Under the pieces are notes generated by a model. It did not search any database and was not told the origin of the DNA. It saw nothing but the letters and a program-made list of their open reading frames with translations. A program made the translations under genes and the position numbers. 64,000 nt of DNA from Shigella phage ESh33, in sequence record ON528743; one strand, 5' to 3'. Below, one piece after another: positions 6,317-34,475 of the stretch; position 1 is the first letter of the stretch, and each line of letters starts with the position of its first letter.

Positions 6317-9454
<3,138 letters not shown>

Positions 9455-23749: not shown

Positions 23750-24043
23750 CTATTTAATGAATACTTTAGATGATGCCTGAGCCACAGTATCACCGCATGA
23801 TATTGGATCAGCCATTTGAACAGCTTTCTTTCCAGTGACATATACCTTAGAAGTTCTAGGTTGTGTCACTCCGCCATGTGTTTCATATGGCTTTTTAATT
23901 TCTGTATGTTCTGTAATTGGATCACCTGCTACGAGAACAGCAATTCCTCCAGTGAATACTTTACTTTGCGTAGCATTCACAACTGTTGGAGGCCATGCTT
24001 CATGGCCGGCAGTAACACACTTATCATAACTTAATCCTGACAT
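23750..24043 (-). CDS. 5.4: gp5.4 PAAR-repeat spike tip protein
   Basis: 97 aa directly upstream of gp6; length and position match T4 gp5.4. Confidence 0.8.
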
Positions 24044-24627
24044 TTATAATACCCCGCTTTAACTCGCCCCTTTAAGGTACTATAATTTATATTAAGAGCT
24101 TTAGCTGCGATTTTAATACTTTTATATAAAACGCCGTTGATAATAACAGATTTAGCATTAGGGGCTATTTTGCCATACCTTGGGTTATTGGCGCCACACA
24201 TCTTCAGAGTTTTACCTCTAGGCCCTCTAGGCCCTCTTTTTCTAGACGATTTAATGCTAATTTTCAATCTAGTTTCACGCGAATGAGATTTACCGTAAAA
24301 TCCATTTTTAGCACCCGCTGTGTTATGTTTTGGGAAGCCACCGATACCGCCTAGTTTCATATTATAAGTTTTCTTAGATTTAACAAATTCCTCTGTGACT
24401 ATTTCTGCCTCTGCGTCATACATAGCTTTTTCAGATTCAAAGAATTTTATAATATGCTTATAAAAATTATCTATGCCATATTTTTTAATGGCATTTTTAA
24501 TGGCAACGCCAGAACCCATATACCCATCATCCAAATTTGAAGTTTTGTGGACGCCTACATAAATTTTTCCTGTTGTTTTATTAGTTATTGAATACAAATA
24601 AAAATATTTATGGTCTTGCATAGACAT
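24031..24627 (-). CDS. segC: GIY-YIG homing endonuclease (Seg family, SegC-like by position)
   Basis: 198 aa; N-terminal [23 protein letters not shown] is a GIY-YIG motif; basic C-terminal DNA-binding tail; sits between 5.1 and 5.4 overlapping both. Symbol is positional recall, not verified. Confidence 0.7.
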
Positions 24628-32665: not shown

Positions 32666-32752
32666 GAATTATTTGTTATTATTAACTCATACCGCACTGA
32701 TTAATACCCTCTATCATCAAGGGTTCTTATTTGAGAGCCTTTGTTAATAATT

Positions 32753-33249: not shown

Positions 33250-33324
33250 GGCCCTGTAGCTGGAAGGTTCAAGCAAGCGACTCATAATCGCCAGATGGTG
33301 GTTCAATTCCACCCAGGGCCACCA
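33250..33324 (+). tRNA. tRNA-Ile (CAU; lysidine-type as in T4) or tRNA-Met
   Basis: Acceptor GGCCCTG/CAGGGCC; anticodon loop CTCATAA; T-loop TTCAATT; 3' CCA; Ile assignment by analogy to T4. Confidence 0.75.
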
Positions 33325-33421: not shown

Positions 33422-33496
33422 GGATGTGTAGCTCAATGGCAGAGCGATCGCCTGTTAAGCGATTGGTTATAGGTTCGAATCCTATCACGTCCGCCA
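33422..33496 (+). tRNA. tRNA-Asn (GUU)
   Basis: Acceptor GGATGTG/CACGTCC; anticodon stem ATCGC/GCGAT, loop CTGTTAA; T-loop TTCGAAT; 3' CCA. Confidence 0.75.
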
Positions 33497-33501
33497 AATT
33501 T

Positions 33502-33612
33502 GTGACAACTGTCACATTAATATCTACTTGACGCGATTATAGGGGTTGAACTGATCACTCTTCTCTTAATTTCGTGTGAAGACATCATGATTGTTGGAGT
33601 AGATATTAATGT
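33502..33612 (+). repeat. structured tRNA spacer: palindrome GTGACAACTGTCAC plus 15-bp inverted repeat ACATTAATATCTACT / AGTAGATATTAATGT
   Basis: Left arm 33514-33528, right arm 33598-33612 (perfect reverse complements); right arm overlaps first bases of tRNA-His. Confidence 0.7.
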
Positions 33613-33686
33613 GGCCGTAGTTCAGTTGGTAGAACTCGAGATTGTGATTCTCGTAGTCATGGGTTCGACTCCCATCGGTCACCCCA
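33610..33686 (+). tRNA. tRNA-His (GUG)
   Basis: Acceptor GTGGCCG/CGGTCAC; anticodon stem CGAGA/TCTCG, loop TTGTGAT; T-loop TTCGACT; 3' CCA. Confidence 0.7.
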
Positions 33687-33690
33687 ATTA

Positions 33691-33766
33691 CGGGGCATAG
33701 CTCAGAAGGAAGAGCAAGGACCTTCTAAGTCCTAGGTCGTAGGTTCGATCCCTACTGCCTCGACCA
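33691..33766 (+). tRNA. tRNA-Arg (UCU)
   Basis: Acceptor CGGGGCA/TGCCTCG; anticodon stem AGGAC/GTCCT, loop CTTCTAA; T-loop TTCGATC; 3' CCA. Confidence 0.8.
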
Positions 33767-33784: not shown

Positions 33785-34135
33785 ATGAAAGGTAATGTTT
33801 ATTTAGTAGTTCATGATTTAACATTCTATTTTAATCATAATGATACTGCTATTTCTGAACGTGTAATTAATTTACTTTATCAGCATGCAGATTATGTTTA
33901 TGTTGAAAATGAATTTGGCCATTGGCAATTTCTCAAAAATCGTTCATTTGGTTTAGATGGTTACGAATACTTTGATCGTAAAGACCTTTTAGATACAATT
34001 CCATTATCTACACAATATCAAAATCATAAGTCTTTACATAAATGCCGGCTAATTCGAAATGCTGAATCTGCGTATGAAGCAATTGATTTATGGCGTAAAC
34101 GCCGTGAACAGATTGATGCTTTAAAAGAATATTAA
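33785..34135 (+). CDS. hypothetical protein, 116 aa
   Basis: ORF starting 19 nt after tRNA-Arg with RBS GAGGAAAAT. Confidence 0.5.
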   Translation: MKGNVYLVVHDLTFYFNHNDTAISERVINLLYQHADYVYVENEFGHWQFLKNRSFGLDGYEYFDRKDLLDTIPLSTQYQNHKSLHKCRLIRNAESAYEAIDLWRKRREQIDALKEY

Positions 34136-34139
34136 GAAA

Positions 34140-34475
34140 CCGGGTCGCTACCGGTAAGTCGTCGGACTGATGTTCCCTGTTTAAGGACTGGCATTAATAA
34201 ATCTTTATGTTTTGTTAATGTCCCCTTATATCACAGCAGAAACGGCGCACCGAATTATCGATTCGAGGAAATATCTTTGCCGTAAGCCGAGTAGCGTTTT
34301 TGACGGAACGTTCGGATATGGTCGAGATATGGCCTTTTAAAAATATTGAGTAGCGTCAACTGCTTGATAACCGGGTTCGAATCCCGGCGTTTCGTACAAA
34401 CACTTGCCTTAGCAGGTGGAACCCCGACAAGGTTGCCGCAAGGCTTAGCCCCAGCCGAAAGGTTGGGGCTTTTTA
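34140..34475 (+). ncRNA. putative structured stable RNA region (GC-rich, no ORF, tRNA-like T-arm hairpin), possibly T4 species 1/2 (rnaC/rnaD)-like
   Basis: No ORF of 60 aa or more on either strand; GC-rich vs flanks; CCGGGTTCGAATCCCGG at 34370-34386; hairpin CGAAT-TATCG-ATTCG at 34250-34264; ends in terminator. Confidence 0.35.
34446..34473 (+). terminator. intrinsic terminator (AGCCCCAGCC-GAAA-GGTTGGGGCT + T-run)
   Basis: 10-bp GC stem, GAAA tetraloop, TTTT. Confidence 0.7.

Follow-up and report, generated by a model that had tools for sequence, protein, structure and literature searches.

The window, by which we mean the whole 64,000-nucleotide stretch of DNA that was analysed, belongs to a Tequatrovirus of the ACG-C40/RB18 type, and the 301 bp spanning the site described here are 99.7% identical to many such phages. 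ARAGORN reads its tRNA array, on the + strand, as Gln-Leu-Gly-Pro-Ser-Thr-Met(CAU)-Tyr-Asn, a 114-nt gap, and then His-Arg. The gap is flanked by tRNA-Asn (33422–33496, +) and tRNA-His (GUG; 33611–33686, +), both placed by ARAGORN and Rfam; tRNA-His has C73 and CCA encoded, and its −1 nucleotide (33610) is U. We refer to the whole Asn–His spacer (33497–33610, +) as element X; as RNA it is structured and makes up the 5' leader of tRNA-His. Its length between these gene boundaries agrees with the roughly 110 bp given by a first-pass annotation of the same DNA.

Element X lies inside a transcription unit that ends at a terminator-like hairpin (34447–34470), and scans of the spacer for sigma-70 promoters and terminators found nothing above background. 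The hairpin stands 3' of homologues of T4 rnaD and rnaC (about 34138–34400), which lie 0.5 kb downstream of X. Between tRNA-Arg and these homologues stands a 116-aa ORF (33785–34135) with no Pfam match; T4 and RB5 have no ORF there. Two further observations concern other tRNAs of the array. The gene that ARAGORN calls tRNA-Met (CAU), at 33250–33324, is the homologue of the T4 gene annotated tRNA-Ile, and its name varies among GenBank records (Met, Ile or OTHER). The first tRNA of the cluster, tRNA-Gln, is preceded by a 9-bp AU-rich helix (32678–32686 with 32743–32751; AUUAUUAAC/GUUAAUAAU) that encloses 56 nt, ends exactly at −1, and is present too in T4, RB5 and REP2; this is probably the T4 tRNA-Gln leader that older work tied to RNase III.

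A conserved RNA fold on the tRNA strand

The spacer is framed by an inverted repeat. A perfect 15-bp repeat (33514–33528 with 33598–33612) had been noted at first pass, and the match is exact, though its true length is one base more: CACATTAATATCTACT at 33513–33528 pairs with AGTAGATATTAATGTG at 33598–33613 over 16 bp, and 69 nt lie between the arms where about 70 had been stated. The right arm runs into tRNA-His as described, positions 33611–33613 being +1 to +3 of the tRNA. With G-U pairs included the repeat extends to 19 contiguous bp (33511–33529 with 33597–33615). The 64-kb window holds no second perfect inverted repeat of at least 13 bp whose loop is at most 150 nt, and 60 first-order Markov simulations gave a mean expectation of 0.017 repeats of at least 15 bp per window. 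The predicted RNA fold of the spacer has an energy of −33.7 kcal/mol (z = −3.98), a stability that none of 200 shuffles reached.

In the predicted structure, the repeat forms an AU-rich helix, P1, which closes a three-way junction made of a P2–P3 arm and a hairpin, P4, and whose 3' strand continues directly into tRNA-His. The 5' arm of P1 occupies 33513–33529 (perfect part 33513–33528, with a G-U extension from 33511) and the 3' arm 33597–33613 (perfect part 33598–33613, with extended pairing to 33615). The minimum free energy (MFE) fold places P2 between ACGCGA (33531–33536) and UCGUGU (33572–33577), so that the P2–P3 arm spans 33531–33577, and P3 between 33540–33549 and 33559–33568, capped by the apical loop ACUGAUCAC (33550–33558). 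P4 (33581–33595) has a GACA/UGUU stem around the loop UCAUGAU and adjoins the P1 3' arm. At the 5' end of the spacer, the palindrome reported at 33502–33515 is present there as GTGACAACTGTCAC and is predicted to fold into a mini-hairpin, P0, with arms GUGAC and GUCAC around the loop AACU. The 3' half of P0 has an alternative pairing with +1 to +5 of tRNA-His. In REP2 the P0 arms are kept and the loop changes AC to GT, and the 5' half of P0 is missing from the Karamvirus and Gelderlandvirus copies.

P3 is a variable domain that takes at least three forms in related copies. Most copies carry type A, with the loop ACUGAUCAC; type B has a GGCAG/CUGCU stem and the loop AAGUCAUGAAC (Melville, L008); and Citrobacter phage CkP1 and Serratia phage CHI14 have different cores, in both of which P4 is kept. 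Inspection by eye showed that the P3 and P4 loops are complementary in both loop types, type A through UGAUCA (AUCA) with UGAU(UG) and type B through UCAUGA with UCAUGA. This complementarity suggests a loop–loop (kissing) contact between P3 and P4 and hence a defined tertiary fold, a contact for which column covariation is inapplicable as the pairing register differs between the two loop types. Other readings of these loops were tried and rejected: a hammerhead ribozyme (words CUGAUCA and GAAG) does not fit the ribozyme core and has no Rfam support; anticodon-loop mimicry by the P3 loops is inconsistent, the loops being 9–11 nt; and a complementarity of the P4 loop to the variable region of tRNA-His is not kept in the Klebsiella phage copies.

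We aligned twelve distinct copies of X and evaluated them with RNAalifold and an explicit count of base pairs. Overall, 87.6% of cells are paired, versus 35–46% in slid-partner controls, and both sides change at nine pairs; none of 500 shuffles matched the observed covariation measures, a result limited by the close relatedness of the copies (effective number 1.43). The inner nine pairs of P1 are paired in 100% of cells, four of them with changes on both sides (e.g., UA to CG, seven versus five sequences). P4 is paired in all cells, and two of its four pairs covary (ACA/UGU, GCA/UGC, UCC/GGA); P2 is nearly invariant and thus uninformative. P1 contains 28 G-U cells versus one C-A cell, and a covariance model of X scores 141.8 bits on the + strand versus 26 bits on the − strand, with a single copy in the window. 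The G-U bias and the strand-biased score together indicate a constraint on RNA of the tRNA strand and not on symmetrical DNA. The spacer is a conserved RNA fold on the tRNA strand.

A fold of this kind within a tRNA array could in principle be a degenerate tRNA or tRNA-like pseudogene left by array rearrangements and without a function of its own. Besides the location of X, P0 (GUGAC/GUCAC) reproduces the uppermost part of the tRNA-His acceptor stem, and several neighbouring or comparable RNAs (rnaC, rnaD, T5 RNA I and a spacer of Klebsiella phage Roth04) end in tRNA-like CACCA or carry T-arms. However, ARAGORN and the Rfam tRNA model (RF00005) find nothing in X even at E = 10, X has no T-loop motif, CCA end or GGTTCRANTCC, and the compensatory changes imply that selection maintains the present fold. 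We therefore consider a pseudogene very improbable.

Distribution, genomic contexts and the SegB site

BLASTN with the spacer alone matched 355 GenBank phage records, and 351 of the matches span nearly all of the spacer. About 197 matches are at least 90% identical (Tequatrovirus), some 150 fall at 80–90% (Karamvirus-type Enterobacter phages, Klebsiella T4-like phages and Gelderlandvirus Melville), and a handful come from Vequintavirinae (W70, A7_1); the type-A core is 82–89% identical between genera. Pattern scans of IMG/VR recovered six true X loci, all in enterobacterial T4-like phages, and a loose 15-base pattern run on metagenome and bacterial-genome contigs gave only chance matches among the 200 loci listed, as rescored with an nhmmer profile. 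X is non-coding: small ORFs across it are not conserved, with ATG changed to TTG in L253, REP2 and TB004. A 37-aa ORF at 33587–33700 was considered as a gene and rejected because it is not conserved.

None of the listed records annotates X as an RNA; some place a spurious 'hypothetical protein' on it. Rfam 15 assigned the spacer to no family (best E = 0.45, a plant miRNA hairpin; others E > 5), gave tRNA matches only on related loci, and has no family for T4 rnaC/rnaD or the T5 stable RNAs. A literature search for T5 RNA III or an X-like RNA found nothing in the papers covered.

X occurs in five arrangements. It lies between tRNA-Asn and tRNA-His in this window and between tRNA-Gln and tRNA-His in Klebsiella phages; Karamvirus and Gelderlandvirus have the order Gln-Y-X-His, in which Y denotes another structured spacer. 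Two arrangements have no tRNA-His: Gly-X-9 nt-Gln in W70-type Vequintavirinae, and Asn-X-13 nt-different tRNA-Arg in REP2 and TB004. Y, between tRNA-Gln and X (L002, L003 1389–1495; L256 about 236–345), has the 11-nt word AGTGTAACGGT in common with T5 RNA I (z = 4.4) and TA(A/C)CGGTAAGTC in common with T4 rnaD. Judged from such sequence likeness, the order Y-X-His may parallel the T5 order RNA I-RNA III-His.

RB5 and T2-type phages have neither X nor tRNA-His, and relative to RB5 the two together form a clean 190-bp indel between the 'CCAAA' of tRNA-Asn and the 'TAC' that precedes tRNA-Arg. This position bears on a DNA-level reading of the inverted repeat, in which X would be a scar, a pair of terminal repeats or the target of a mobile element (a SegB site, or MITE-like). 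The first-pass annotation had raised the scar and the target as possibilities, pointing out that T4 carries segB in its tRNA region. It does: segB lies in the T4 interval from tRNA-Ile to tRNA-Arg, and the same interval of the window holds Tyr, Asn, X and His. Alignment of the T4- and T2-type tRNA regions, the suggested check, thus does place the indel of X and tRNA-His where T4 has segB, but it does not make X the SegB site. The preferred site of SegB in the segB-less phages T2L, RB1 and RB3 is 27 bp long, lies wholly in tRNA-Asn and is centred on the T-psi-C sequence GGTTCRANTCC (PMC2330249). The core motif GGTTCGAATCC is found in tRNA-Asn of the window at 33472–33482, and the RB3-species phage RB5 has exactly the same tRNA-Asn. 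GGTTCRANTCC is absent from 33497–33610; of its 11 matches in the window, nine fall in the tRNA genes, one in the rnaC homologue and one at 7221. By motif placement, X adjoins the predicted SegB target and is not the target itself.

Other features that might favour mobile DNA are the terminal inverted repeats of 16 bp that enclose about 70 bp and, in REP2 and TB004, a T5orf172/MUG113 nuclease-like ORF just downstream of X. Against them, nearly every mismatch of the arms is G-U on the + strand, the interior hairpin P4 covaries too, each genome carries one copy, with only the chance matches mentioned above among the 200 contig loci listed, and there is no target-site duplication except an ambiguous AAT. 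X thus shows none of the marks of a MITE, namely dispersed copies, target-site duplication and DNA-symmetrical repeats. On the location of the SegB site, the G-U bias and the single copy we rejected the earlier proposal, and we regard a DNA-level origin of the repeat as scarcely credible.

The first-pass statement that there is no segB ORF holds for the tRNA region. Far from the tRNAs, at 24031–24627 (−), lies a 198-aa, full-length GIY-YIG Seg-like ORF that is 54% identical to T4 SegB residues 19–102. The match at 7221–7231 (+; GGTTCAAATCC) is an isolated T-psi-C/SegB core sequence outside the cluster, where ARAGORN finds no tRNA.

The tRNA region around X is a recombination hotspot. REP2 and TB004 keep X, and downstream of it they have the other tRNA-Arg and the T5orf172/MUG113 ORF, which is GIY-YIG-related (L011 1972–2526; L012, same region). 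This arrangement suggests that, in these two phages, a nuclease drove the replacement of what had followed X.

Leader helices and the 5' end of phage tRNA-His

The 3' strand of P1 enters tRNA-His, and the stem had accordingly been proposed to sequester the 5' end of the tRNA in the precursor. The conserved RNA helix is indeed predicted to pair +1 to +5 in four of the five X–His contexts: in MFE folds of the window, Karamvirus, Melville and CkP1 these nucleotides (and also 7–8) are paired with the leader. The part of the proposal that fares less well is energetic: forcing the tRNA-His cloverleaf costs only 1.8–6 kcal/mol, and for the contexts of the Klebsiella phage and W70 the MFE structure is the cloverleaf itself. 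Some of the pairing is also partly automatic, in that an upstream tRNA ending in GCCA is complementary to UGGC of tRNA-His. From these folding models, sequestration in the nascent precursor is plausible, but it would be marginal and not universal.

The helix itself recurs well beyond close relatives of X. In the other Straboviridae genera examined, tRNA-His is preceded by an AU-rich helix whose 3' arm ends 0–2 nt from +1; the tRNA-His of Aeromonas phage has only a weak 7-bp candidate. What the helix encloses varies from a 4-nt loop to a three-way junction of 70–80 nt. Kosakonia phage 305 has a plain hairpin with a 4-nt loop in a spacer of 36 nt, Morganella phage Rgz1 an interior of about 20 nt in a 60-nt spacer, Serratia phage CHI14 a 65-nt core of another type, and this window a 67-nt three-way junction interior. 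The covariance model of X matches CHI14 (56 bits), CkP1 (47 bits) and Rgz1 (34.5 bits, E = 8e-6), and weakly Kosakonia 305 (20 bits, E = 0.03). The leaders of these four phages are versions of one leader.

We then compared the helices that abut the 5' ends of 121 phage tRNA genes, which are not independent samples, with T5 as the independent case. The seven longest all belong to tRNA-His, and helices of at least 12 bp precede 8 of 11 tRNA-His genes versus 2 of the 110 others. Both of these exceptions are tRNA-Asp. In Karamvirus and Klebsiella T4-like phages, tRNA-Asp has a closed multi-branch leader of about 125–135 nt (L002 860–996; L001 985–1107), with a terminal helix of 13–17 bp that abuts the tRNA (z = −2.9 and −2.4), and part of it carries a hypothetical-protein annotation in one record. 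Klebsiella phage Roth04 also has a closed structured spacer between tRNA-His and tRNA-Ser (L001 1675–1770; GAAGGAA...UUCCUUC, z = −2.7) whose 3' end is the tRNA-like CACCA.

Histidine tRNAs of these phages share a further feature at the processed end. E. coli HisRS uses a genome-encoded G at −1. E. coli hisR encodes this G-1, unlike phage tRNA-His: U stands at −1 in each of the 11 phage genes examined, which come from T5, a mycobacteriophage and eight genera or groups of Straboviridae. The coupling of a tRNA-His without encoded G-1 to a structured leader is found in two unrelated families, Straboviridae and Demerecviridae. In the T5 record, tRNA-His starts at U-1, and the Rfam tRNA model starts it at G+1. 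The coordinates in that record raise the possibility of a 5'-phosphorylated U-1. We entertain, as a doubtful extension, the idea that the leader dictates an unusual 5' maturation of tRNA-His, for example such a U-1 or an RNase III-timed release, in which case X and T5 RNA III would be maturation devices and not by-products.

Proposed function and known analogues of element X

The reading that we favour, with a probability of roughly 0.6, is that X is a co-transcribed structured leader and processing module of tRNA-His that is released as a stable by-product RNA and acts primarily in cis. X would be made within the polycistronic tRNA transcript; its 3' end would come from RNase P cleavage at the tRNA-His 5' end and its 5' end from an endonucleolytic cut after the CCA of tRNA-Asn. 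Until processing, the leader helix may hold or insulate the 5' strand of tRNA-His, or set the timing, and the uncut precursor duplex of about 20 bp could serve as an RNase III entry site. The released RNA of ~110 nt would then persist as a stable species, as the annotation of T5 RNA III states and as T4 RNAs C and D are reported to do. The core would be a lineage-specific elaboration. As the leader helix and not the core is kept across genera, the primary role most likely lies in cis, in tRNA-His maturation.

Two observations sit less easily with a leader acting in cis. The identity of the type-A core exceeds what a simple processing stem needs, and the presence of X without tRNA-His in W70-type phages and in REP2 and TB004 means that a role strictly tied to tRNA-His is not obligatory. 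Part of the conservation of X may reflect recent horizontal transfer together with tRNA-His.

The same observations speak for the main rival, which owes that place to the survival of X away from tRNA-His: X would chiefly be an independent, trans-acting small RNA, either a decoy or inhibitor of a host factor or defence nuclease or a base-pairing regulator, and its proximity to tRNA-His would only borrow RNase P for 3'-end formation. The complementarity of the P3 and P4 loops in both loop types is consistent with it, as is the fact that phage tRNA regions are now seen as anti-defence loci (PMC13096335). However, evolution can dispense with the core, which gives way to another in CkP1 and CHI14 and is missing from Rgz1 and Kosakonia 305, all of which keep the helix; and the contexts with X alone amount to few records that look like recent recombinants beside a nuclease-like gene. 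We regard a chiefly trans-acting RNA as unlikely, if still a serious contender.

The original suggestion of a processing signal or an extra stable RNA fits the comparative data and an apparent analogue in T5. T5 rnaIII (NC_005859, 30284–30389) is 106 nt long and annotated 'stable RNA with unknown functions'. On the transcribed strand the T5 order is rna1, RNA I, RNA III, tRNA-His, and the end of RNA III is the start of tRNA-His. Its predicted fold (−46.8 kcal/mol, z = −5.9) has a 20-bp terminal helix that closes a multi-branch core and in which the 3' GCCAC of RNA I pairs with U-1 and G1–C5 of tRNA-His. X has the same layout. At about 110 nt, against about 106 nt for RNA III, it likewise immediately precedes tRNA-His on the tRNA strand, without a gap, and has a terminal helix, a multi-branch core and a short hairpin beside the 3' arm, and in the Roth04 context its helix likewise reaches −1 to +5 of tRNA-His and the 3' end of the upstream RNA. 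RNA III differs in belonging to another phage family, Demerecviridae. Local alignment of X with T5 RNA III, T5 RNA I, T4 rnaC and T4 rnaD gave z from −0.7 to 0.3, no sign of homology, and the covariance model of X had no match in T5 or T4. Since there is no detectable sequence similarity, we call T5 RNA III the closest known analogue of X and not a homologue; the layout may be convergent.

RNase III stems offer a second comparison. Like those of rRNA operon flanks and the T4 leader near tRNA-Gln, P1 is a duplex of flanking sequence that abuts the end of a mature RNA. An RNase III cut just upstream of T4 tRNA-Gln is said to have been described by McClain in 1979 and by Pragai and Apirion in 1981. 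The precursor duplex in the window has 19 contiguous bp including G-U pairs, plus 2 after a mismatch, and is shorter or interrupted in other lineages; after RNase P cleavage only about 14–15 bp of P1 would be left. Published work reports a part for RNase III in the maturation of T4 tRNAs (PMC4810235). Unlike a plain RNase III stem, X encloses a conserved core, which a processing stem does not require.

The nearest counterparts in T4 are RNAs C and D (the species 1 and 2 RNAs), which are small, are encoded in the tRNA region and have no known role (PMC3014915). Like them, X is a small non-coding RNA inside a tRNA cluster and on its strand. T4 rnaD has a CCA end and rnaC a tRNA-like T-arm and acceptor end, whereas X has neither, and the 3' end of X, unlike those of rnaC and rnaD, would come from the RNase P cut at the next tRNA.

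X shares with T5 RNAs I and III and T4 rnaC and rnaD the features of a non-coding RNA in a tRNA cluster on the tRNA strand, and by this analogy it is best filed with the stable RNAs of phage tRNA clusters, an old and functionally unexplained class. In the decades since they became known, no function has emerged for T4 RNAs C and D or T5 RNAs I and III. To this group X brings a widespread member that is absent from Rfam and unannotated as RNA in the examined records. It also raises the question of how a phage tRNA-His without encoded G-1 is matured, charged and given its histidine identity. Its natural variants, which include at least three types of core, hairpins without a core and copies separated from tRNA-His, separate the conserved cis helix from the optional core and make the old question of what such RNAs do testable.
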